Positions 7,985 to 37,935 of a DNA stretch of 64,000 bases are shown in pieces. The translations under genes and the position numbers were made by a program. The notes beneath the pieces were generated by a model. It ran no database searches and was not told the DNA's origin. It saw only the letters and a list, made by a program, of their open reading frames with translations. This DNA is from Dehalococcoidia bacterium (GTDB lineage: Bacteria > Chloroflexota > Dehalococcoidia > UBA2979). Location of the stretch: the NCBI GenBank assembly GCA_963667465.2, contig CAXXDN010000002.1:1152001-1216000 (forward strand), read 5' to 3'. Every line of letters starts with the position of its first letter. The stretch's first letter is position 1.

Positions 7985-8014
7985 CCCGTCATTCCGGCTC
8001 CCCGGAATGACGGG
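7985..8014. repeat. Perfect 13-bp inverted repeat (REP-like palindrome or terminator of the CoA-transferase gene)
   Basis: CCCGTCATTCCGG-CTCC-CCGGAATGACGGG. Confidence 0.55.
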
Positions 8015-8061
8015 GTGGGAGAGCTGGTACGACGGGTCTGCAGAGGTCTCCGGCGGCGAGG

Positions 8062-9309
8062 CTAGCCGAGGTCCGGCGTCGGTCGCTCGTCCCACAGCAC
8101 CGCGCGCTCGACGAGCGCCTCGATCGCGTCGCCGTCGAGGCCGAGCATGTCGGCGAGGAGCGCCCTCGAGTCCTGGCCCATGTCCGGCGAGGTGCCCCGC
8201 ACCCCACCCGGAGTCCGCGAGAGCTTGATCGGCGTGTCCACGAGCGGGAGCGTGCCGAGCGTGTGGTGGTCCACAGGCTTGAGCATCCCGCGCGCCTCCA
8301 CCTGCGGCTGCGCCGCCGCCTCCGCGATGTTGTTGAGGGGTCCACAGGGAATCTCGTACGGGGTCAGCCGTTCCACCCACTCGTCCGTCGTCCGCTTGCG
8401 GAAGGCCTCGTTGAGCAGCGGCTCCAACTCCGCGTGGTTCGCCGAGCGCGCGTGCGCCTCGGCGAAGCGCGGGTCGTCGATGAGCTCGACGATCTCCAGC
8501 TCCGAACAGAGCAGCGCCCACTGGTTCGGCACACCCCAGGCGAGGGCGACGACGATGTAGCCGTCCGCTGTCGGGAAGGCCTGGAACGGCACGGCCCAGG
8601 AGTGGCGCGTGCCCAGCGGCCGGGGCAACTCACCGGTAAGGTGGTAGCGCAGGAAGGCGTTCTCCTGGACCGCCAGCTGACAGTCGAGCATCGAGATGTC
8701 GACGAGCTGGCCTCGGCCGGACGTCTCGCGCTCGCGCAGCGCCGCGAGGATGCCGACGGCGCCGAACAGCCCGCCCGCGATGTCGGCGAGCGAGAGGCCT
8801 GGCTTGAGCGGCGGCCCGTCCGGCTCGCCGGTGACGGACATCACCCCGCCCGCGCCCTGGATCACCACGTCGAGGGCCGGCCGATCGCGCATCGGCCCGG
8901 TCTGCCCGTACCCGGAGATGGCGGCGTAGATCAGGCCCGGATGGACCTCGGCGAGCCGCTCGTAGCCGAGGCCGAGGCGCTCCAGCGTGCCCGGCCGGAA
9001 GTTCTCCACCAGCACGTCGAACTGCGGCACGAGCTGCAGGAACAGCTCGCGCCCCTCCTCCTGTTTGAGGTCGATCGCGATGCTGCGCTTGCCTCGATTG
9101 ACGCTGAAGAAGTAGCCGGACTCGCCATCGAGGAGCGGTCCCGTGGTGCGGGCGACGTCCCCGAAGGGCGGGCGCTCGCACTTCACCACCTCCGCGCCAA
9201 GGTCGCAGAGGATCATCGTGCAGTACGGGCCGGCGAGCACCCAGCTCAGGTCGAGCACGCGCAGGCCGCTCAGCGGACCGCCGGTCATCGAGGCTCCCTC
9301 CGCCATCAC
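8062..9309 (-). CDS. Family III CoA-transferase (CaiB/BaiF)
   Basis: PLSGLRVLDLS-VLAGPYCT-LCDLGAEVVK-E, NRGKRSIAIDLK, DVLVENFRPG, catalytic Asp in LADIAGG. Confidence 0.93.
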   Translation of the reverse strand: MMAEGASMTGGPLSGLRVLDLSWVLAGPYCTMILCDLGAEVVKCERPPFGDVARTTGPLLDGESGYFFSVNRGKRSIAIDLKQEEGRELFLQLVPQFDVLVENFRPGTLERLGLGYERLAEVHPGLIYAAISGYGQTGPMRDRPALDVVIQGAGGVMSVTGEPDGPPLKPGLSLADIAGGLFGAVGILAALRERETSGRGQLVDISMLDCQLAVQENAFLRYHLTGELPRPLGTRHSWAVPFQAFPTADGYIVVALAWGVPNQWALLCSELEIVELIDDPRFAEAHARSANHAELEPLLNEAFRKRTTDEWVERLTPYEIPCGPLNNIAEAAAQPQVEARGMLKPVDHHTLGTLPLVDTPIKLSRTPGGVRGTSPDMGQDSRALLADMLGLDGDAIEALVERAVLWDERPTPDLG

Positions 9310-10217
9310 ACTCCCGCGGCGTCGCGCCGCACGAGGCTGAGCCCGCCCCGCAGGGCGACATACACGCCCGCGAGGAGCAACGCGGCGCCGAGCGCCTCAA
9401 GCAGTGTAGGCCGCTCGCCGAGGAGCGTCGCGCCAATCGCGGTCGCGCCCACCGGCTCGCCGAGCACCGCGACGGCGACGACCGCCGCCGGCAGCGAGCC
9501 GAGCGCCCAGGTCAGCGCGCCGTGCCCCATCAGCTGCGGAACGAGCGCGAGCAGCACGATGAAGATGTAGGCCTCGGCGCCCCAGCCGAGCAGCGATTCG
9601 CCGCTCGCGGCCAGCGCGACCAGCAGCGCGACCGCGGCGATCGCGTTGACCAGCGCCGCGTAGCTGACGTTCGACAGCCTCGCGCGGACGCGCCGCCCCG
9701 CGACGAGGTAGATCGAGGCGAAGACGGCGCCGAGGGCGGCGAAGGCGTCGCCGCGCAGCGAGACGCCGTCGCCGAGGTCGGAGCCCGCCAGCAGCAGCGC
9801 TCCGGCGGCGGCGCTGGCGATCGCGATGAGCAGCGCCCGCGTGGGCCGCTCCCGAAGCCACAGCCAGGCGCCGAGGCCGACGATCAGCGGCTGTGTCGCG
9901 ACGATCGCCGTACTGGCGGCGATCGTCGTGTCCTGCAGCGAGGCGACCCAGAAGCCGAAGTGTGCGGCGAGCGCGAGCCCCGCGAGCAGCAGCAGGCCTG
10001 CGTCGCGGCGGCCGAGCAGGCTCAACTCCTCGCGCCGGCGCAGGCCGGCGAGCGCGAGGAGCGGGAGCGCCGCGAACGTCATCCGCAGCGAGGCCACAAC
10101 CAGCGGCGGGGCGTCCGCCAGCCGAATCAGCGGCGCGGCCCAGGAGAGCGCGGCCACTCCCACGAGCAGCACGATCCACTCGTGCGACGCCGCGCGTCCA
10201 GGCAAGGTCCTGACCAT
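9306..10217 (-). CDS. EamA/DMT family transporter (paralog A)
   Basis: About 10 TM helices; LVPQLMGH and LGEPVGAT motifs. Confidence 0.88.
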   Translation of the reverse strand: MVRTLPGRAASHEWIVLLVGVAALSWAAPLIRLADAPPLVVASLRMTFAALPLLALAGLRRREELSLLGRRDAGLLLLAGLALAAHFGFWVASLQDTTIAASTAIVATQPLIVGLGAWLWLRERPTRALLIAIASAAAGALLLAGSDLGDGVSLRGDAFAALGAVFASIYLVAGRRVRARLSNVSYAALVNAIAAVALLVALAASGESLLGWGAEAYIFIVLLALVPQLMGHGALTWALGSLPAAVVAVAVLGEPVGATAIGATLLGERPTLLEALGAALLLAGVYVALRGGLSLVRRDAAGV

Positions 10218-10243
10218 GGGGCGACGCTAGCAGGTACGCGCGC

Positions 10244-11164
10244 TCACGAGGGCGCTCCATCCTCGCCCTCGCGCGTTACGAGGCGCAGCCCGCCCCGCAG
10301 GGCGACGTACACGCCGACCAGCAGCAGCGCGGCGCCGAGGGCTTCGAGCAGCGTCGGCCGCTCGTCGAGGAGCGTCGCGCCGATCGCGGTCGCCCCAACC
10401 GGCTCGCCGAGCGCGGCCACCGCGACGACGGCGGCGGGCAACGAGCCGAGGGCCCAGGTGAAGGCCCCGTGCCCGATGAGTTGCGGCAGCAGCGCGAGCA
10501 GCACGATCAGGATGTAGGCCTCGGCGCCCCAGCCGAGCAGCGATTCGCCGCTCGCCGCCAGCGCGACCAGCAGCACGATCGCACCGATCGCGTTGGCCAG
10601 CGCGAAGTAGCTGACGTTCGAGAGCCTCGCCCGGATCCGCCTGCCCGCGATGAGGTAGATCGAGGCGCAGACAGCGCCCAGCGCCGCGAAGGCATCCCCG
10701 CGCAGCGAGACGCCGTCGCCCAGGTCGGCGCCCGCCAGCACCAGCGCCCCGCCCGCGGCGATGGCGATGCCGATCAGCAGCGGGCGCGTCGGCTGCTCAC
10801 CGAGCGCGACCCAGGCGCCGAGCCCGACGATCAGCGGCTGCGTCGCGATGATCGTGGTGGCCGCGGCGATCGAGGTGTCCTGCACCGAGGCGGTCCAGAA
10901 CCCGACGTAGCCAGCGAGAGCCAGTCCCGCGAGCGCCAGCAGCGCCGCGTCGCGGCTGCCGAGCAGCCTCAGCTCTTCGCGGCGTCGCAGGGCGGAGCTG
11001 GCGAGCAGCGGGAGCGCCGCCAGCGCGAGCCGCAACGAGGCGATCACCAGCGGCGGGGCGTCCGTCAGGCGGACCAGCGGCGCGGCCCAGGCGAACCCCA
11101 CCACCCCCACGAGCAGCACGATCCATTCGCGCCCCGCCACGCCCTCGCGCCAGGCTCTGTTCAT
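10244..11164 (-). CDS. EamA/DMT family transporter (paralog B, tandem duplicate)
   Basis: Collinear with and very similar to 9306..10217. Confidence 0.88.
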   Translation of the reverse strand: MNRAWREGVAGREWIVLLVGVVGFAWAAPLVRLTDAPPLVIASLRLALAALPLLASSALRRREELRLLGSRDAALLALAGLALAGYVGFWTASVQDTSIAAATTIIATQPLIVGLGAWVALGEQPTRPLLIGIAIAAGGALVLAGADLGDGVSLRGDAFAALGAVCASIYLIAGRRIRARLSNVSYFALANAIGAIVLLVALAASGESLLGWGAEAYILIVLLALLPQLIGHGAFTWALGSLPAAVVAVAALGEPVGATAIGATLLDERPTLLEALGAALLLVGVYVALRGGLRLVTREGEDGAPS

Positions 11165-11214
11165 GCGGCGACGCTAGCAGGTGCGGCCCCTACTGGCCGG
11201 AGGATCGCGGAGTG

Positions 11215-12111
11215 CTAGCTCTCGCCCCCGTGCTCGGCGAGAACGCTCTCGATCATGTCGCGCAACTCGTTGCTCCGTGGGGCCAGGAAGAGGGTGTCCA
11301 CGACCTCGTTCGAGTTGGGCTCGAGGGTCGCGAAGTTGGGGTGGTAGCTGAAGCCAAGACCCATCCCAAACGCCTTCTCCTCAGGGATGTCCCAGTCGAG
11401 GATTACGAAGTTCACCTGGTCCTGGAATTCGAGTCGCAGCCTGTTCACGACAGGCCGTGCGCGGTTGCAGTTCGGTCACCAGATCGCATCGAGGAAGACG
11501 AAGGTCGGCTTCCCGTTCACCGGGAGGTACGCGCCCGTCGAGTCCACGTGCGTGCTCGGCGGCTCGTAGTCGGCCGCGACCAGCTGGGCTGGCCCGGTTG
11601 GGAAGTCGTAGCTCGGCTCAGGCGTCGCGGTCGGCGTGGGCTCAGGCGTCGCGGTCGGCGTCGGCTCAGGCGTCGCGGTCGGTGTCGGCTCAGGCGTCGC
11701 GGTCGGTGTTGGCTCTGGCGTCGCGGTCGGTGTTGGCTCTGGCGTCGCGGTCGGTGTTGGCTCTGGCGTCGCGGTCGGCGTGGGTTCGGGCGTCGCGGTC
11801 GGTGTTGGCTCTGGCGTCGCGGTCGGTGTTGGCTCTGGCGTCGCGGTCGGCGTGGGTTCGGGCGTCGCGGTCGGCGTGGGTTCGGGCGTCGCGGTCGGCG
11901 TGGGTTCGGGCGTCGCGGTCGGTGTTGGCTCAGGCGTCGCGGCCGGCGTCGCCTCCGCTATCGCCGTCGCGACTACCGCCGAGGGCGTCGCCGTCGCGGC
12001 GGGGGTGGTCTCGGCCTCGTCGCCGCCGGAGCAGGCCGCCGCAAGCGCCGCGCAGGCGAGGGCCAGCGGCGCGAGGTGCAGAACTCGCAGGTGACGCTGG
12101 ATGCGCTGCAT
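11215..12111 (-). CDS. Thioredoxin-fold lipoprotein selenoprotein 1 (UxxC; Sec TGA at 11476-11478) with long TPEPTPTA linker
   Basis: ORFs 11476..12132 and 11215..11448 are in one frame: ...[43 protein letters not shown]...YHPNF; lipobox LAAAC; downstream hairpin. Confidence 0.88.
11438..11456 (-). promoter_or_regulatory. Putative bacterial SECIS hairpin 1
   Basis: GGCCUGU-CGUGA-ACAGGCU at +20..+38 after the UGA; G at loop position 2. Confidence 0.75.
11615..11950 (-). repeat. 24-bp coding tandem repeat, about 14 copies, encoding (TPEPTPTA)n
   Basis: Units such as ggctcaggcgtcgcggtcggcgtg with synonymous variation. Confidence 0.95.
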
Positions 12112-12118
12112 CAGCACC

Positions 12119-12562
12119 TCAGGCTGGCTCAATCAGCTGGATCGCACCCGCCTCGACGAGCTGCACGCACTCGCAGGGCGTCATGCCGGGCAACGACTCC
12201 TCGCCGGGCTGCATCCGCTCGAGGCTGTCGGCGATCGTCGTGATCTGCTCGCGCGAGCGTTCCAGTTCCTCGATGCGGTCGTCGAGCTGCCCGACGGCCT
12301 CGGCGAGCGTCCGGCTGAGCACCGTGCGAATGTCCCCGCAGGTGCCATCGTGCGCAAGGCCGAGCACCGTGCCCATCTCTTTGAGCGACAGGCCGAGGCC
12401 GCGCAGCCCGACGGCGAGCCGCAGCGTCTCAACATGCTGCTCGCTGTAGTCGCGGTAGCCGTTCGCCCGTCGCGGGGGCGAGGGCAGCACGCCCTGCCGC
12501 TCGTAGAAGCGGATCGTGTCGGCGCTGAGGCCGCTGGCGGTGGCGGCTTGCTGGATATTCAT
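12119..12562 (-). CDS. MerR-family (metal-responsive type) transcriptional regulator
   Basis: MNIQQAA...[23 protein letters not shown]; Cys in GTCGD and C-terminal CEC. Confidence 0.9.
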
Positions 12563-12629
12563 CCGGTTCGCCCGCTCCCGTTCTCGTCGCCGTTAAGGAT
12601 ACGCCGCCACGAAGCGCCCGTGGCGCCGG

Positions 12630-13163
12630 CTACCCACCCTGGCCGGCGATCGCGTCATCGAGAAGCTCGCGCAGCGCCACCTCGCGCAGCGGGCCGAAGG
12701 TCGTCTTCAGCACATCGCCCGCGTCGGGTGCGACCATCGCGAAGGAGGGGTGTCGGCCGACGCCCAGCTCGCGGGCCAGGTCGCGCTCCGCCCCGATGTC
12801 GAAGTCGAGGATCACGAAGTTGATCCGGTCCTGGTATTCCTCCCGAAGCCCGTGCACGACGGGCCGCGCGATCGCGCAGGTCGGTCACCAGATCGCATCG
12901 ACGAAGACGAGCGTCGGTTTCCCGTTCGAGGGCACATAGGCGCCGGTGGAGTCGACCTGCTCTGACGAGTATTGGAAGTCGGCAGGCACGAGCACTGCCG
13001 GGCCCGTGGGGAAGGCCCCGTCCGCTGCGGCTGTGGCGGCGGACGACCCCGCGGATGGCGCGGGCGCGCCCTCGTCACCGCCGGAGCAAGCGGCGATCAG
13101 CGCCAGACCGGCGAGGAGCGCGAACACGATGCTGAGAGTTCGCGGGATGCTCATGCGCTCCAT
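12630..13163 (-). CDS. Thioredoxin-fold lipoprotein selenoprotein 2 (UxxC; Sec TGA at 12885-12887); start may be 13154
   Basis: In-frame ...KPTLVFVDAIW-TGA-PTCAIARPVVHGLREEYQDRINFVILDFD...RHPSF; lipobox LIAAC. Confidence 0.88.
12847..12865 (-). promoter_or_regulatory. Putative bacterial SECIS hairpin 2
   Basis: GGCCCGU-CGUGC-ACGGGCU at +20..+38 after the UGA. Confidence 0.75.
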
Positions 13164-13242
13164 ACCTCCCTCGCCCGGGGTGCTGGCTGCTGATGATCTC
13201 CGGGATCAAGGATATGACGCGACGCGGTTGTGCGGAGCGCGG

Positions 13243-13824
13243 TTATCCCTCGTAGCGTGCGATCAGGGCGTCGAGCATGCCGCGCAGCTTGGGCTCACGC
13301 TGCGCCCCGAAGACCCGCGCGATCACCTCGGCCGAGTCGGGCGCGATCAGCAGGTAGGCGGGTGTGCCCGAGTAGCCGAGCGCGCGCGCCAGCCTGTCGT
13401 CCTCGCGGTCGTCGACATCCAGCACGACGAAGTTCACCTGGTCCTGGTATTCCGTTCGGAGCCCATGCACGATGGGCCGCGCGATCTCGCAGAACTGTCA
13501 CCAGATCGCATCGACGAACACCAGCGTCGGCTTCCCGTTCGAGGGTATGTAGGCCCCCGTCGAGGCGACGCGGTCCTCGGGCGGCTCGAAGTCGGCGGCG
13601 ACCAGCACGGGAGGGCCGGTCGGGAAGGCGTAGCTCTCCGGCGTCGGCGTGGGCGAGGGCGGCGCCGTCGCCTCGGGAACGACCGTCGTGGCGGGAGTCG
13701 CCGTCGTGACGGCCGGCTGCGGCGTAGCCATGGACGCGGGTGCATCCCCACCCGTGCAGGCGGCGGCGAGCGCCAGCGACGCGAGGGCCGGGATCAGCAA
13801 GCGCCGTACGCGGGATTGCAGCAT
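13243..13824 (-). CDS. Thioredoxin-fold lipoprotein selenoprotein 3 (UxxC; Sec TGA at 13498-13500)
   Basis: In-frame ...KPTLVFVDAIW-TGA-QFCEIARPIVHGLRTEYQDQVNFVVLDVD...GTPAY; lipobox LAAAC; ATG 13824 lies 7 nt after TATGAT. Confidence 0.88.
13460..13478 (-). promoter_or_regulatory. Putative bacterial SECIS hairpin 3
   Basis: GGCCCAU-CGUGC-AUGGGCU at +20..+38 after the UGA. Confidence 0.75.
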
Positions 13825-13861
13825 CGACTCGATCATACTCCCCGGGGTGAGGCCCGACACG

Positions 13862-14500
13862 CTACTCGTACGTGCCTCCGGCCGTGTCGGCGTCCGCTAC
13901 GCCCACCTCGAGCAGGTGGCCGACGACAGTGCCGAGGGCGGTCGTGCGCACGATCCCGTCGCGGTCGATGAAGAACGTCGCCGGCAGCGCTTCCACGCCG
14001 TAGCGCCGCGCCACCTCGCCGCCCGCGGTGTCGAAGAGTATCGGGAAGGTCAGCCCGAACTCGTCGACGAAGGCCTCGGCCGCCGCCAGCGTGTCCTCCG
14101 GCAGCAGATTCACGGCGAGGATCACGAGGTCGTCGGGACCGCCTGGGCCGCGCTCCTCCCACAGTTCCTGAAAGTCCGGCAGCTCGCGGCGGCAGGGCGC
14201 GCACCAGCTCGCCCAGAAGTTCAGCACCACGGTCTTGCCTCGAAAGTCGGAGAGCCGCAGCGCGCCGCCGCCCAGCGCGTTCAGCAGGAAGTCGGGCGCC
14301 GGCCGGTCGACATCCACGAGCGCATCGTCCAGCAGCCCGATCGTGGCCCGCCGGGGCGTCGGGGTCGCCGTCGCGACGGCGGTCGCGGCCTCGGTTGCAG
14401 TTGCGGCAGGCTCGGGGCCGCCATCCCCGCAGGCGGCCGCGATCAGGGCCGCGCAGGCCAACGCCAGCAGACGGGCGTACGTCGAACGGCCTGACGCCAT
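13862..14500 (-). CDS. TlpA/ResA-like thiol-disulfide oxidoreductase lipoprotein
   Basis: [36 protein letters not shown]; lipobox IAAAC. Confidence 0.92.
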
Positions 14501-14524
14501 CCCAACTCCGCGCCGAGGCTACAC

Positions 14525-15121
14525 CTAGCCTCCGCCGCCGGCGTCCGCCTTCGCTACCCCCGTGGGCAGCAGGTTGCCGAAGACCGGGCCGTAGTTTACC
14601 GAGCGCACCACGCCCTCGCGGTCGATGAAGAACGTCGCCGGCAGCCCGCGCACACGGTAGCGGTCCGCCACCGCGCCGTCCGCGGTGTCGAACAGCACGG
14701 GGAAGGTGAACCCGTTGCCCTCGATGAACTCGCGGGCGTCGGTCATCGTGTCCTGCACGAGGAAGTCGAGCGCGATCATCACGAGGTCGTCCGAGCCGTC
14801 CTCGCCGCGCTCGTCCCAGAGCTCTTGGAACTCAGGCATCTCCTCGCGGCAGGGGGGGCACCAGCTCGCCCAGAAGTTGAGCACCACCGTCTTGCCCCGG
14901 AAGTCGGCGAGCATGACGGTCTCGCCCTCGAGGTTCGTCAGCGCGAAGTTCGGCGCTGGCTCGTCGATGGCCACCGTGAGGTCGTCGAGCAGGCCGATCT
15001 CGACCATCACTCCCTCGCTCGTCATGCCCTCCTCGACGCCCGGGTCGATGAACTCGCGTTGCACGAACAGCGCGGCGATCACCGCCACGATCAGGAAGGC
15101 GAGCCTTCTGTTCTCCTGCAT
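14525..15121 (-). CDS. TlpA/ResA-like thiol-disulfide oxidoreductase, membrane-anchored
   Basis: N-terminal TM; [30 protein letters not shown]; ATG 15121 with SD. Confidence 0.92.
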
Positions 15122-15168
15122 TACCGCACCCCTTCCTGATGACGCCCGCAGCACGGGCGCAGCCCCCG

Positions 15169-16527
<1,359 letters not shown>

Positions 16528-16738
16528 GCTGCCCTCTCATACCCCTCGCAGGCAGCGCCCGGGACGGGGACGCACTGCACGTTCGCGATGCCGCGACCTC
16601 CCGTGATCCGCCCTCGTTTCCCGCGACTCCATGATACGTCTCGCCACGCCTGACGGCGGCGATCCGGCGGGGCTGGTGGCCTCGATCCCTCGCGACTACG
16701 ATGGCGCTGATCGAGGACGGCGGCGCGAGGAGGGGCCC

Positions 16739-17539
16739 ATGGACCAGGATGCGCTCGACCGCGCCGCCGCGATCCTCGCCGACGCCTCGCACACCGTCGC
16801 GCTGACCGGAGCGGGCATCTCGAAGGAGTCAGGCATCCCGACCTTCCGAGGCCCGGACGGCCTCTGGACCAAGCGCGGCGAGCCGCCGCTCAACGGCTAC
16901 CAGGTCTTCCTCCAGGACCCCGCCGCCTGGTGGGAGCAGCGCCTCGAGCAGCTGGAGCAGCCCGACGAGTTCCGCAGCTCGTTCGCAGCGGCGCAGCCGA
17001 ACGCCGGACACCGCGCGCTCGCCGCGCTCGGGGAGCTCGGGGCCCTGCAGCACGTGATCACGCAGAACGTCGACGACCTGCACCGCCGCGCCGGCACGCA
17101 GTCGCTGACCGAGATCCACGGCAACACCAACTGGATGCGCTGCCTCGGCTGCGCCGCGCGCTGGCCTCGCGAGGAGTTCCCGATCGACCCCGGCCAGCTC
17201 CCGCCGCGCTGCGCCCAGCCCGGCTGCGAGGGCATCGTGAAGGGCGACGGCGTGATGTTCGGCGAGCCGATCCCGCCTGAGGCCCTCGAGCGCTGCGGGC
17301 TGGAGGCGCGCCGCTGCGACGCCTTCATGATCATCGGCACCACCGCCGTCGTGTACCCCGCCGCCGAGTTCCCGCAGCTGGCCGTGCGCCGCGGCGTCCC
17401 ACTGATCGAGATCGACCCCGATCCAACTGCGCTGACCGAAATGGCCGCCGTGGTACTGCGCGGACCGGCCGGCGAGGTCCTCCCCGCGCTCGTCGAGGCG
17501 GTCCGGGTTCGGCGCGAAGCAGACGCCACCGCGCCGTGA
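16739..17539 (+). CDS. cobB: Sir2-family NAD-dependent protein deacylase
   Basis: TGAGISKESGIPTFRG, TQNVDDLH, EIHGN, Zn-binding Cys pairs, VYPAA. Confidence 0.92.
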   Translation: MDQDALDRAAAILADASHTVALTGAGISKESGIPTFRGPDGLWTKRGEPPLNGYQVFLQDPAAWWEQRLEQLEQPDEFRSSFAAAQPNAGHRALAALGELGALQHVITQNVDDLHRRAGTQSLTEIHGNTNWMRCLGCAARWPREEFPIDPGQLPPRCAQPGCEGIVKGDGVMFGEPIPPEALERCGLEARRCDAFMIIGTTAVVYPAAEFPQLAVRRGVPLIEIDPDPTALTEMAAVVLRGPAGEVLPALVEAVRVRREADATAP

Positions 17540-34203: not shown

Positions 34204-36402
34204 TTATCGGCGGCGTAAACGCGGTGTTTCGCGCGATACGGCAGCGGCCGCGACCGGCTCGACGCGGACGGCGGCGAACTTCAGATCGGGCTGCTTCGAG
34301 CGTGCGTCGATGGCCTCGCTGGTGGCGTTGTTGGTGATGGCGTGGCGGTTGAAGATCTCGCCCCAGTGGAACGGCGCGAAGACCGCGCCGCTGCGGATCC
34401 TGTCGGTGACCCGCGCCTTCACCTCAAGGCTGCCGCGCCGCGAGATGACTCGCACGAGCTGCTGGTCGCGCACGCCGAGGTCATCGGCGTCGTCGGGGTG
34501 CACCTCGAGGAACGGTTCGTGCTCGCTGCGCAGCAGCTTCGGCACCTTGCCGGTGCGGGTCATCGTGTGCCACTGGTCCTTGACGCGCCCGGTGAGCAGC
34601 GCCAGGGGGTACTCGTCGCTGAGGATCTCCGCCGGCGTGCGAAACGCCGGCGCGTGGAAGCGCGCGCGGCCGTCGGGCGTGGGGAAGCGGCCCGCCCCGA
34701 ACAGCCTCGGCGACGGCGCGACCTTGCCCGTGGCGTCGGCCAGCACCGAGCCCTCGGGGTGTGGCCACTGGATGCCCGTGCCGGCCTGCCGCAGCAGGTC
34801 GTAGCTGACCCCGGTGATGTCGAGGTCGCGCCCGCGTGTCAGCTCGCGGTACTCGTCGAAGATTGCCTCGGTGTCCTCGTAGTCGAAGTCGGCGCCGTAG
34901 CCGAGGGCTTCCGCAACGCGGCAGATGATCTGCCAGTCCGGCAGCGCGAGGCCTGGCGCCTCCCCGATCTGCTCGAGCAGGCAGATGCGTCGCTCGCTGT
35001 TGGTCATCGTGCCCGGCCGCTCGGACCACTGCGCGGCGGGCAGCAGTACGTCGGCGATGCGGCCGGTCTCCGTCGGGTAGTAGGCGTCCTGCACCACGAC
35101 CAGCTCGGCGCGCTGGAGCGCCGCCCGCACGCGCTCGGCGTTGGGGAGCGACGCGACGGGGTTGGTCGCGGCGATCCACACGACCTTCACCTCGTCGAGC
35201 TCGAGCGCCTCGACCAGCTCGATCGCGGTGAGGCCGGGCCGGTCGGAGATCGAGCCGGGCTCGAGGCCCCACGCGCGCTCGACCTCGGCGCGGTGTTCGG
35301 CGTTGGCGACCACGCGGTGCCCCGGCAGCGTCGTGGCGAGGCCGCCGCACTCGCGGCCACCCATCGCGTTGGGCTGGCCGGTGAGCGAGAAGGGGCCGGC
35401 GCCGGGCTTGCCGATGTTGCCCGTCGCCAGTGAGAGGTTGATGAGCGCGAGGTTCTTGTCGACGCCCGACGTGCTCTGGTTCGCGCCCATCGTCCACAGG
35501 CTCAGCAGCGGCCCATTCGTCGCGATGATGCGCGCCGTATCGACGATCTCCTGCGCGTCGAGGCCCGTCACCGACGACGTCCGCTCGGCGGACGAGCCCT
35601 CGAGGGCGGCTTCGACGTCCGCCCAGCCGCTGGTGCGGTCCTCGATGAAACGCTGGTCCAGGCCGCCCGCGAGCCGTACCTCGAACAGCAGCGAGAGGAG
35701 CAGCGCGACGTCGGTGCCGGGAAGCACGGGCAGGTGGATGTCGGCGATCTCGGCGGTGCGGGTGCGCCGCGGGTCGACGACGATCACCCTGACGCCGTCG
35801 CGGTCGGCGCGCTTCCGCGCCTTGATGCGGTCGAACAGGATCGGGTGACACGCCTCGATGTTCGCGCCGAGGATGAGGAACGTGTTGGCTGCCTCGATGT
35901 CCTCGTACGAGGCGGGCGGCGAGTCGGCGCCGAAGGCGAGGTTGTACGCAGCGACGGCGCTGGCCATGCACAGCCGCGAGTTGGTGTCCTGGTTGTTGGT
36001 GCCGATGAAGCCCTTCGCCAGCTTGCCGAAGAGGTAGTAGTCCTCGGTCATCAACTGGCCCGATCCATACAGCATGATCGAGTCCGGCCCGTGCTCGGCG
36101 ACGTTGCGGCGGATCGACTCCGCGACGCGGTCGATCGCCTCGCCCCACCCGGTGACGCGCGTGTGCGCGCCCTTGCGGTCGCGCAGCATCGGGGTGAGCA
36201 GGCGGTCGCCGGTGTCGAAGACCTGGCCGAGCAGCGCGCCCTTGGCGCAGAGCTTGCCCTTGTTGACGGGGTGGTCGGGATCGCCGCGCACCTCGCGCGC
36301 TACGCCGTCCTTCGCGCGCACGAGCAGGCCGCAGCCGGTGCCGCAGTAGCAGCAGATGGAGCGGCGCCAGCCGTCACCCGCCAGCAGGGGCAGCCTTGCC
36401 AC
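34204..36402 (-). CDS. narB: Assimilatory nitrate reductase, Mo-bisPGD catalytic subunit (NarB-like)
   Basis: CCYCGTGCG..LCAKG [4Fe-4S], DTNSRLCMASA, TGQPNAMGGRE, TGRVKDQWHTMTRTG, SKQPDLK. Confidence 0.88.
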   Translation of the reverse strand: MARLPLLAGDGWRRSICCYCGTGCGLLVRAKDGVAREVRGDPDHPVNKGKLCAKGALLGQVFDTGDRLLTPMLRDRKGAHTRVTGWGEAIDRVAESIRRNVAEHGPDSIMLYGSGQLMTEDYYLFGKLAKGFIGTNNQDTNSRLCMASAVAAYNLAFGADSPPASYEDIEAANTFLILGANIEACHPILFDRIKARKRADRDGVRVIVVDPRRTRTAEIADIHLPVLPGTDVALLLSLLFEVRLAGGLDQRFIEDRTSGWADVEAALEGSSAERTSSVTGLDAQEIVDTARIIATNGPLLSLWTMGANQSTSGVDKNLALINLSLATGNIGKPGAGPFSLTGQPNAMGGRECGGLATTLPGHRVVANAEHRAEVERAWGLEPGSISDRPGLTAIELVEALELDEVKVVWIAATNPVASLPNAERVRAALQRAELVVVQDAYYPTETGRIADVLLPAAQWSERPGTMTNSERRICLLEQIGEAPGLALPDWQIICRVAEALGYGADFDYEDTEAIFDEYRELTRGRDLDITGVSYDLLRQAGTGIQWPHPEGSVLADATGKVAPSPRLFGAGRFPTPDGRARFHAPAFRTPAEILSDEYPLALLTGRVKDQWHTMTRTGKVPKLLRSEHEPFLEVHPDDADDLGVRDQQLVRVISRRGSLEVKARVTDRIRSGAVFAPFHWGEIFNRHAITNNATSEAIDARSKQPDLKFAAVRVEPVAAAAVSRETPRLRRR

Positions 36403-36408
36403 GTCGCA

Positions 36409-37935
36409 TCACCCGACGGCGACGAGCGCGCGCTCGCGTAGCGCCGCCGCGCCTCGCAGCGACCGCAGTTGCGCCGCTACTTCCTCCGGCAGGTCCGGCG
36501 TCAGCACGCCCTCGGCGCTGCGCTCGCCGAGCTGTGCGTCGTCGCCGAGGCGACCCCCGGCAAAGATGTCGGCCGCGTCCAGGATCTCGCCATCGACGCG
36601 CTTGCGGTCGCCGAGCAACCCGATCTCCCCCGCGCGGTGCTGGCCGCAGGCGTGCGGGCAGCCCGACATCCGGATCCGGACCGGCTCGTCGAGCTCGTAG
36701 CGCTCCTCGAGCGCGCCCGCGAGCTTGAGCGCCTCCGCCTTCGTGTCGATGAGGCTGAAGTGGCAGTAGTCGTTGCCCGTGCACGTCACCATCGAACGCA
36801 CCCACGGCGAGGGTTTCGGGCTGTAGGCCTCCAGCAGCGGCTCGGCCAGGAGCGCACCGAGGCGCTCGTCGGGCACGTTCGGGATGAGCACGTTTTGCTG
36901 GACGGTGAGCCGCAGCTCGGCGCTGCCGTACCCGGCCGCCAGCCGCCCGAACTCGATGAGGTCAGCGCCGCTCACGCGCCCGACGGGCACGAGGCAGCCG
37001 ACGACGCTGCGCCCGGGCTGGCGCTGCGCTGAGATGCCGATGTGGTCGCCGCCGTGCTTACCGGTTGCAGACTCCGCGGCGCGAGCGAGTGCGACGCCCA
37101 TGCGCTCCTCGACGGCCGCGCGGAAGCGCTCGATGCCCCACTCGCCGAGCAGCACCTTGAGCCGCGTCTGCTTGCGCTGCTCGCGCGGTCCGTGGTCGCG
37201 GAAGGTCTCGAGGATCGCGAGCGCAACGGGCACGACGCCCTCGGGCTCCACGAACACGTCGAGGGGCCGCGCCAGCTCGGGCTGCTGCCCTCCCAGCGCG
37301 CCGCCGACGAGCACGTTGAAGCCGGAGATGTCCTGCCCGGCCTCGGAGCGCGTCGCGGGCACGAAGGAGAGGTCATGCGTCTGCGCGTGGGCGCAGTCCT
37401 CGCGGCAGCCGGTGATCGAGAGGTTGAACTTGCGCGGCAGGTTGCTGAAGCGCTTGCCGCCGATGATCGCCTGCTGGAGCCGCTCGCCGAGCGTGCGCGC
37501 GTCGATCAGCTCGTCCGCGTCGAGGCCAGCGAGGGGGCAGCCTACGACGTTGCGGACGTTGTCCATGCCGCTCTGCTGCGAGTTGAGGCCGGCGGCGGCG
37601 AGGCGCTGCAGCACCCACGGGGCGTCCTCGATGGTGATCCAGCGGAGCTGGATGTTCTGGCGCGTGGTGATGTCGGCCGTGCCGCGGCCGCAGCGGTTCG
37701 CGATCTCGCCGATGGCCGTGATCTGCTCGGAGATCAGCACGCCGTTGGGGATGCGCATGCGCAGCATGAAGTAGCCCGGCGTCGCCTTGCGGTGGAACAG
37801 CCCGTACCACTTCAGCCGCTCGAAGTCGTCCGCCGGGATGGCGTCGACGCCCTCGACGGCGTAGCGGTAGAGGTCCGGCAGGACGTCGAGGCCGTCCTTC
37901 GCGGTCTTGAGTGCCTCGATGCGGTTGGGAGCCAT
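36409..37935 (-). CDS. nirA: Ferredoxin-nitrite reductase
   Basis: NRIEALK, ITTRQNIQ, SGMDNVRN, NLPRKFN, CTGNDYC...SGCPHACGQ siroheme/[4Fe-4S] ligands. Confidence 0.92.
   Translation of the reverse strand: MAPNRIEALKTAKDGLDVLPDLYRYAVEGVDAIPADDFERLKWYGLFHRKATPGYFMLRMRIPNGVLISEQITAIGEIANRCGRGTADITTRQNIQLRWITIEDAPWVLQRLAAAGLNSQQSGMDNVRNVVGCPLAGLDADELIDARTLGERLQQAIIGGKRFSNLPRKFNLSITGCREDCAHAQTHDLSFVPATRSEAGQDISGFNVLVGGALGGQQPELARPLDVFVEPEGVVPVALAILETFRDHGPREQRKQTRLKVLLGEWGIERFRAAVEERMGVALARAAESATGKHGGDHIGISAQRQPGRSVVGCLVPVGRVSGADLIEFGRLAAGYGSAELRLTVQQNVLIPNVPDERLGALLAEPLLEAYSPKPSPWVRSMVTCTGNDYCHFSLIDTKAEALKLAGALEERYELDEPVRIRMSGCPHACGQHRAGEIGLLGDRKRVDGEILDAADIFAGGRLGDDAQLGERSAEGVLTPDLPEEVAAQLRSLRGAAALRERALVAVG

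Follow-up and report, generated by a model that had tools for sequence, protein, structure and literature searches.

What do three consecutive genes encode when each of them is interrupted by a TGA codon at the same place and continues beyond it in the same frame? The question is raised by the minus strand of a 64,000-nucleotide stretch of DNA from a Dehalococcoidia bacterium (assembly GCA_963667465.2, contig CAXXDN010000002.1, positions 1,152,001 to 1,216,000), here called the window, in which three paralogous genes, A, B, and C, lie between positions 11215 and 13860. Very probably, each gene encodes one lipid-anchored selenocysteine (Sec) protein of thioredoxin fold with a W-U-x-x-C active site (U, Sec), made by SelB- and hairpin-dependent recoding of UGA and acting as an extracytoplasmic oxidoreductase. 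A preliminary description of the window, made from the letters alone, had proposed a selenoprotein family of this kind, and that reading is now supported by the Sec machinery of the genome, a hairpin downstream of the TGA, the occurrence of TGA and Cys forms among homologs, and a single fold that spans the TGA.

Translated with genetic code table 11, every copy falls into two same-frame open reading frames (ORFs) parted by one TGA; with TGA read as U, the copies become single ORFs of 305, 177, and 205 residues, each with exactly one recoded codon (U219, U93, and U121). Comparison of the two translations confirms the splits at the positions where the preliminary description had placed them. Paralog A (type UPNC; 11215–12132, minus strand) has its likely start at the ATG at 12111–12109 and its stop at the TAG at 11215–11217, with the in-frame TGA at 11476–11478 (predicted Sec U219 in the numbering of the ORF as translated). 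Paralog B (type UPTC; 12630–13163, minus strand) has its TGA at 12885–12887 (predicted Sec U93) and TAG as its real stop, and paralog C (type UQFC; 13243–13860, minus strand) has its TGA at 13498–13500 (predicted Sec U121) and TAA as its real stop; database homologs of C begin where C has the ATG at 13836. Mutual identity among the copies is 49–55% over their length and 53–59% in the conserved part. The upstream parts all end in ...NGKPT(F/L)VF(L/V)DAIW, and the frame after the TGA opens with PNC (A), PTC (B), or QFC (C), followed in all three by ARP(V/I)V..LR.E(F/Y)QD..NFV.LD. The TGA stands at the first Cys position of the W-C-x-x-C thioredoxin motif in every copy and is constant among the three, while the codons that flank it vary. 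Elsewhere in the window TGA is an ordinary stop, as had been stated from the outset: 35 long ORFs with strong coding composition end in TGA (19), TAG (14), or TAA (2), the MerR-type gene between the paralogs being among those that end in TGA. Since no ordinary stop is more frequent in the window than TGA, the code is not reassigned.

The same codon recurs among relatives. Searched with a profile of the conserved part, 18 of 18 genomes of the same genus yield full-length matches, as do 3 of 6 other genera of the family. These 21 related genomes and that of the window hold 48 such matches, from at least four genera, and TGA is present in every one (one TGA in 46, two in the remaining 2), at a column that, in the fetched loci, is the TGA column of the window. 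One TGA at the same place in three paralogs and their relatives is a pattern far beyond chance. Hidden Markov model hits number 67 with U and 17 with C at the Sec column among 85, and the species-representative genomes contribute 57 distinct hits, 50 of them with U, 6 with C, and 1 with a gap; only two of the six Cys forms are in-family. The preliminary description had named TAA or TAG at this codon as evidence against a selenoprotein; homologs among the fetched loci and species-representative hits carry TGA or Cys, never either of these stops. The species-representative homologs come from metagenome-assembled genomes of uncultured Dehalococcoidia or Chloroflexi, several of them labeled as marine or sponge-type. 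Of 401 genomes of the phylum, 251 have any thioredoxin-domain match (a tally that includes the unpublished genomes G344 and G038, which enter no other result); matches outside the family cover the thioredoxin part only, at E-values of 3e-17 or weaker, some with TGA and some with Cys. In one other family, the form is ...DAIW-U-P-S-C in one genus and ...DAIW-C-x-x-C in a second. A family tree of 81 rows, built on few columns and with many open forks, needs three changes to account for its six Cys rows, and its well-supported branches force one.

A search of a 5.8-billion-protein collection returns 26 hits, of which eight were read; the other eighteen cover 18–59% of the query. Four of the eight are full-length Cys forms with the same N-terminal extension (P0004, P0005, P0006, and P0012), and the other four end in ...DAIW, one of them fused to an upstream TlpA-like frame. 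All are unnamed or called "hypothetical protein". The expectation that such genes are misannotated as split or truncated is borne out, in that database entries of the family mostly end at ...DAIW.

Selection on the codons that follow the TGA was measured on 103 homolog pairs, 80–97% identical over the 47 codons after the TGA, with off-frame controls. The pN/pS ratio is 0.36 in frame, compared with 1.25 and 1.86 in the other two frames, and 1085 differences fall at third codon positions, versus 458 and 486 at the other two. Purifying selection in this frame implies that the upstream and downstream parts are translated in one phase. The measurement takes the place of a calculation over all paralog pairs (median dN/dS of 0.57 downstream and 0.41 upstream), which is uninformative owing to saturation and bias in GC content at third codon positions.

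The genome that holds the window (G000; 2.97 Mb in two contigs, 93.6% complete) encodes all four components of Sec synthesis and insertion that the preliminary description had singled out: selA, selB, selC, and selD. The tRNA-Sec scores 77 bits against RF01852 and is called tRNA-SeC with anticodon tca by ARAGORN, SelA scores 425 bits, SelB 299 bits (its C-terminal end also has a second match), and SelD 358 bits, all above the family cut-offs. Further Sec sites lie outside the window. The selD gene itself (C1:106747) contains one in-frame TGA, within C-G-G-U-x-G-K, and the hairpin after it has the loop G-U-G; C2:1517823 is a site of formate dehydrogenase type (...C-N-R-T-U-H-A-P...); and four paralogous genes (C2:956176, 315221, 912254, and 496571) have an in-frame TGA in the motif D-U-G-S-C-T, by which they resemble the "UGSC-containing" selenoprotein family named in reviews. 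Given tRNA-Sec, SelA, SelB, SelD, and these further sites, the organism uses Sec. The hairpins of the formate dehydrogenase-type and D-U-G-S-C sites have G-U-C or G-U-G loops, with G-U-G in the four D-U-G-S-C-T genes, and it is likely that the selenocysteine insertion sequence (SECIS) elements of this genome have G-U in a small apical loop in common. A G in the small apical loop is a feature of bacterial SECIS elements, according to PMC1088965.

SelA co-occurs with the family's TGA form: it is found in 22 of 22 genomes holding the TGA form, and a SelA match is absent from both genomes with an in-family Cys form (0 of 2), whose completeness is not reported. One genome of the family (94% complete, in one contig) has neither SelA nor the selenoprotein gene family, and two others have SelA and lack the selenoprotein gene family.

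Downstream of each TGA lies a predicted hairpin of the kind that would direct recoding. In A, B, and C alike, its 7-bp stem opens 19 nt past the UGA, its 5-nt loop reads C-G-U-G-A/C, and two stem pairs show compensatory change on both sides among the three copies. On the minus strand, the SECIS-like hairpin of A occupies 11435–11459 (core stem 11456–11450 / 11444–11438, loop 11449–11445), that of B 12844–12868, and that of C 13457–13481 (core stem 13478–13472 / 13466–13460, loop 13471–13467). In 53 distinct TGA-form segments of 75 nt, drawn from the window's genome and other Chloroflexota genomes, 88.5% of cells are paired, compared with 83.0 ± 0.6 in shuffles; 38 cells are changed on both sides, compared with 9.8 ± 2.4, and neither value is reached in any of 500 shuffles. 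The covariation score is 0.299, versus 0.179 in shuffles, and a control in which the partners are slid by 1–3 columns gives 15–46% paired. The most telling control is a biological one: the 17 Cys-form segments, aligned codon for codon, have 39.9% of cells paired and no covariation. Read by eye from the sequences, the in-family Cys forms keep two (L109) and three (L113) of seven stem pairs, and L109 has no G in the loop. The stem is encoded in the R-P-(V/I)-V-(H/N)-(G/R)-L codons of the helix after the active site, and it is in exactly this stretch that the Cys forms differ. An Rfam scan of positions 11000–14000 (E ≤ 1) gives no match, and Rfam appears to be without a model for this type of hairpin. 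Numeric spacing rules for such hairpins are applied by bSECISearch.

The protein fold likewise runs across the TGA. Spanning this codon, the Pfam Thioredoxin model PF00085 (cut-off 23.5) matches B at 31.5 bits and C at 28.4 bits, and C also exceeds the cut-off of PF13098, at 30.3 bits. The family profile, searched against the PDB, finds thioredoxins and protein disulfide isomerase domains with E-values down to 1.6e-20 over profile positions ~27 to 125. An AlphaFold model of the mature part of B (residues 50–177, built on 49 aligned sequences) has a mean predicted local distance difference test value (pLDDT) of 93.2 and a predicted template modeling score of 0.89 and predicts a classic thioredoxin fold across the TGA. 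Its elements are strand 35–40, U44, helix 45–61, strand 66–71, helix 75–83, Pro90, strands 91–95 and 102–107, and helix 112–125. The modeled Sec stands at the N-terminus of the long helix 45–61, after the central strand, and Pro90, the one invariant residue of the alignment, is predicted just before strand 91–95, at the place of the thioredoxin cis-Pro. The best PDB matches of the model in Foldseek are ordinary thioredoxins (TM-score 0.71–0.75 by target length, root-mean-square deviation of ~2 Å over ~93 columns). Both the Pfam match across the TGA in B and C and the model agree with the earlier placement of the TGA at the attacking Cys of a thioredoxin-type fold. The downstream half is modeled as the C-terminal part of this fold, with no independent fold of its own.

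A different picture emerges for the FPTGP... segment upstream, which the preliminary description had called a "pre-domain". In the model, the first ~30 residues form a confidently predicted extension that is held on the core by short bridges and has no counterpart in the matched structures. A separate domain is rejected on this ground; as modeled, the segment is a family-specific N-terminal extension packed on the thioredoxin core.

The lipid anchor that had been proposed is plausible. All three proteins have a basic n-region, a hydrophobic stretch, a lipobox-like A-A-C or I-A-A-C end of the signal, S/T-G-G-D, and then a low-complexity linker, and the genome encodes Lgt (160.6 bits) and LspA (126.9 bits), consistent with lipoprotein processing. 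On the other side, A and C have Ala in place of Leu at lipobox position −3. In A, the linker between the lipid anchor and the folded domain is rich in Thr, Pro, Glu, and Ala and is encoded by a 24-nt tandem repeat (14 copies, 92% matches; 11615–11949, minus strand). The open frames of homologs range from ~190 to 500 residues, and linker length therefore seems to be freely variable.

Taken together, these features suggest how the proteins may be made and used. Each would consist, in order, of a lipoprotein signal peptide, a low-complexity linker, the family-specific extension of ~30 residues, and a classic thioredoxin fold. The UGA would be recoded co-translationally by SelB carrying Sec-tRNA(Sec), recruited by the hairpin inside the coding sequence, which shares its nucleotides with the codons that specify the opening turns of the helix beyond the active site. 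Export and lipidation would then place the domain on the outer face of the cytoplasmic membrane, where it could act as a selenol/thiol-disulfide oxidoreductase, cycling between a selenolate/thiol pair and a selenylsulfide, probably in joint work with the TlpA-like and DUF3179 proteins encoded in the same orientation nearby. The read-through frame, the fold, the covariation of the hairpin, the Sec machinery, and the pattern of Sec and Cys homologs are computed results on which this scheme builds. Sec insertion, lipidation, extracytoplasmic location, oxidoreductase activity, and partners are its predicted parts.

Several observations weigh against this scheme. Copy A by itself scores 20.0 bits against PF00085, below the cut-off of 23.5. 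For the hairpin, the number of pairs with any double change (5) is not above shuffles (92 of 500), the outer pair (columns 27–49) is unpaired in 30 of the 53 sequences, and single-sequence folding energies of the 59 nt after the UGA are close to those of shuffles (z of −0.42 to +0.65), so that the case for the hairpin rests on comparative data. The homologs compared are related and the hairpin lies in a coding region, and part of its conservation is protein constraint. The absence of SelA from two Cys-form genomes of unreported completeness is weak evidence. The type-C signals (13836–13756, minus strand, and the orthologs P0008 and P0011) have an R-R pair in the n-region, within S-R-x-R-R, which leaves the export route as Sec or Tat, with Tat possible for C only, to judge from the signal sequence. 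Selenium incorporation, UGA read-through, export, and lipidation are all predicted, and the proposed function is drawn only from fold, motif, and gene neighborhood.

This neighborhood is compact. All genes from 16527 down to 8062 are co-oriented with short gaps, in the order DUF3179, two TlpA/ResA-like genes, C, B, a MerR-family regulator, A, two EamA-type transporters, and a family III CoA-transferase. The DUF3179 lipoprotein gene (15169–16527, minus strand; 343.8 bits), a conserved neighbor, encodes a lipobox-like signal and a Y-C-P-L-C-N motif and is a Cys form. Directly upstream of C lie two TlpA/ResA-like Cys-form thiol-disulfide oxidoreductases (13862–14500 and 14525–15154, minus strand), and directly downstream of A two tandem paralogs of EamA-type (DMT) transporters (9306–11164, minus strand); both pairs are conserved neighbors. 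The MerR-family regulator gene (12119–12562, minus strand) lies between B and A, and its TGA stop is ~7 nt before the likely ATG of A. Its product has three Cys, one in the region of the dimerization helix and a C-x-C near the C-terminus, and its best matches in NCBIfam (CueR at 84.5 bits, MerR, and CadR) stay under the cut-offs. In 10 same-genus neighborhoods of 20 kb, EamA, TlpA-like genes, and one to four selenoprotein copies are found in 10 of 10, DUF3179 in 9, and MerR in 6; absence from the other four leads to rejection of MerR as a core part of the system. In other families, neither EamA, TlpA-like, and DUF3179 genes nor MerR occur in the neighborhoods of the TGA or Cys forms. Outside the cluster, the window's genome has genes for a CcdA/DsbD-type carrier and a VKOR homolog; DsbB was not found. 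A promoter and terminator scan of 8000–17000 gives 0 and 0 sites, which supports a single long transcription unit weakly at best. It is conceivable, if rather doubtful, that one to four lipid-anchored selenothioredoxins, the EamA-type exporters with which A-type copies alternate in three genomes, TlpA-like proteins, and DUF3179 form a selenium-dependent redox relay outside the cytoplasm. Such a surface module would be almost Sec-obligate and specific to this lineage of uncultured Dehalococcoidia, marine and sponge-associated, and an exported small thiol might drive it in place of the usual CcdA or VKOR routes.

The same neighbors invite other views of what the proteins do. They might be surface peroxidases, in which peroxide would oxidize Sec to selenenic acid, Cys would convert this to a selenylsulfide, and the CcdA-fed TlpA-like neighbors would re-reduce it. 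The two TlpA-like genes, of the AhpC/TSA-Redoxin family, are conserved immediate neighbors, the CcdA/DsbD-type membrane electron carrier is present elsewhere in the genome, the homologs come from Dehalococcoidia with marine and sponge-type labels, and the fast reaction of Sec with peroxides is established chemistry of glutathione peroxidases. However, the selenoproteins have no similarity to peroxiredoxins or glutathione peroxidases beyond the shared fold (Redoxin, 14.2 versus a cut-off of 26.6 bits), and their nearest structures are plain thioredoxins. A peroxidase role is rather unlikely on this balance, and nothing in the evidence sets it apart from action as a reductase, oxidase, or isomerase. 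Among the U-P-x-C variants are ones with x-x residues that known reductases and oxidases also have.

Quite unlikely, too, is a role of the Sec proteins in binding or handling soft metals (Hg, Cd, Cu) at the cell surface under control of a MerR-type sensor. The regulator between B and A, with its best matches to CueR, MerR, and CadR and its three Cys including the C-x-C, points in this direction, and established chemistry leads one to expect very tight binding of soft metals by a Sec-Cys pair; mercury-related proteins with Sec are also listed among the predicted selenoproteins in PMC13188914. But the regulator is found in only 6 of the 10 same-genus neighborhoods, the selenoprotein, EamA, TlpA-like, and DUF3179 genes persist without it, and it scores below every family cut-off. 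No metal transporter, reductase, or chaperone gene was seen beside the cluster.

Much less probable is an explanation in which UGA is read as a standard amino acid (Trp, Cys, Gly, or Arg) through near-cognate suppression or a variant code. Read-through alone would look the same as Sec insertion in the sequence, but a global reassignment is opposed by the 19 of 35 confident window ORFs that end in TGA. The Sec machinery is complete, SelA co-occurs with the TGA form, the SECIS-like hairpin goes with the TGA forms and has been lost from the Cys forms, and the position is that of the catalytic Cys of CxxC, a classic site of Sec/Cys exchange. Scarcely credible, finally, is the view that these are pseudogenes or truly split genes that stop at the TGA, with a downstream part that is untranslated or made separately from an internal start: table 11 does give a separate downstream ORF for each copy, starting at GTG (11448, 12857, and 13470), and public databases hold mostly N-terminal pieces ending in ...DAIW, but the GTG "starts" are the conserved hairpin loop and, read by eye, have no Shine-Dalgarno-like motif before them, neither half folds alone whereas the thioredoxin fold spans the TGA with pLDDT of 93, all 48 full-length matches keep the TGA at one column, purifying selection acts on the downstream frame in the phase of the upstream part, and Cys forms occur as single ORFs, so that separate translation of the halves, which the preliminary description had held to be decisive against a selenoprotein, is opposed by the evidence.

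Read as Sec-containing thioredoxin-fold lipoproteins, the three proteins find their closest relatives in a class that is well known. Predictions of Sec thioredoxins and of several UxxC families (Trx-like, DsbA-like, DsbG-like, and thiol-disulfide isomerase-like) go back to 2005, these families are among the most abundant selenoproteins in marine metagenomes, and DUF3179 is listed as a family with UxxC/T Sec forms (PMC1088965, PMC2398784, PMC9312934, and PMC13188914); UxxC thioredoxin-like proteins are also among the commonest predicted bacterial selenoproteins (PMC2398784 and PMC13188914). The bacterial Trx-like UxxC selenoproteins (PF00085 UxxC; Trx-like 1/2/3 of the Global Ocean Sampling, GOS, survey) share with the window family the fold, the UxxC motif, and predicted Sec at the attacking position; further shared features are a coding-region hairpin after the UGA whose small apical loop contains G (PMC1088965), and Cys homologs and routine truncation in annotation (PMC13188914, PMC2398784, and PMC1088965). 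For GOS Trx-like 1/2/3 (COG0526 / cd02953 / cd02950), the likeness is drawn from their description in PMC2398784. Compared with this class, the window family adds a predicted lipoprotein signal and linker, one to four tandem paralogs per genome, an N-terminal extension of ~30 residues that thioredoxin structure matches leave uncovered, a strong excess of Sec over Cys (50 U versus 2 in-family C in species-representative genomes), and the fixed neighborhood of EamA, TlpA-like, and DUF3179 genes.

TlpA, ResA, and CcmG (DsbE), together with the "thiol-disulfide isomerase-like" selenoproteins (cd02966), have a thioredoxin fold and W-C-x-x-C, with the membrane tether and extracytoplasmic site that are predicted for the window proteins too, but the window proteins resemble plain thioredoxins in the fold search and not the larger TlpA-type domain. 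Membership in the TlpA/DsbE group was rejected on scores (TIGR00385, 18.9 bits versus 123.15 for C; Redoxin PF08534, 14.2 versus 26.6 for B), and none of A, B, and C matches AhpC-TSA (PF00578). The NCBIfam Trx-like selenoproteins SaoT (NF040730), HUIPC-motif (NF047660), VPGUxxT (NF041383), DsbG-like (NF041057), and WAxxUGC (NF041054) belong to the same broad class (PMC13188914), and none of the five models matches A, B, or C at E ≤ 0.01. The Cys-form TlpA-like neighbors reach ~60 bits against WAxxUGC_long, far below its cut-off of 300. No paper on this selenoprotein subfamily was found in open-access literature text. The family is a subfamily, comparatively well supported, of the long-known UxxC thioredoxin-like selenoprotein class.

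For annotation, this means that one to four genes per genome, across a family of uncultured Dehalococcoidia, are now recorded as truncated hypothetical proteins. For the selenoproteome, it adds a subfamily that is unmatched by curated NCBIfam selenoprotein models, in which Sec forms strongly outnumber Cys forms, and it places Sec in predicted membrane-anchored, extracytoplasmic proteins. The general understanding of how bacterial selenoproteins work is unchanged; the points of note are the predominance of Sec, the predicted lipid anchor, the tandem expansion, and the fixed neighborhood. Sec forms with hairpin and SelA, set against Cys forms without the hairpin in genomes where SelA was not found, provide a natural comparison that is useful for following the joint course of Sec/Cys exchange and SECIS decay.

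A genome-wide scan for a TGA between coding segments, combined with a hairpin, returns 11 candidates, a lower bound since it missed copy A and SelD. It recovers copies B and C, the formate dehydrogenase-type U-H-x-P site, and the four D-U-G-S-C sites. The remaining four, one of which was checked, are judged to be adjacent same-frame genes. The candidate inside the window, near 36411 (34204–37935, minus strand), consists of the TGA stop of a nitrite/sulfite reductase followed by a same-frame molybdopterin oxidoreductase gene and is judged a false positive.

Within the family, two further variations stand out. In three related genomes (loci L088, L095, and L096), EamA genes take turns with A-type selenoprotein genes, as though the two had been duplicated together. 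Two members (loci L073 / L119 and L133) have U-P-H-U at the active site, with a second TGA at the position of the resolving Cys, 9 nt after the first, and a single downstream hairpin would serve both.

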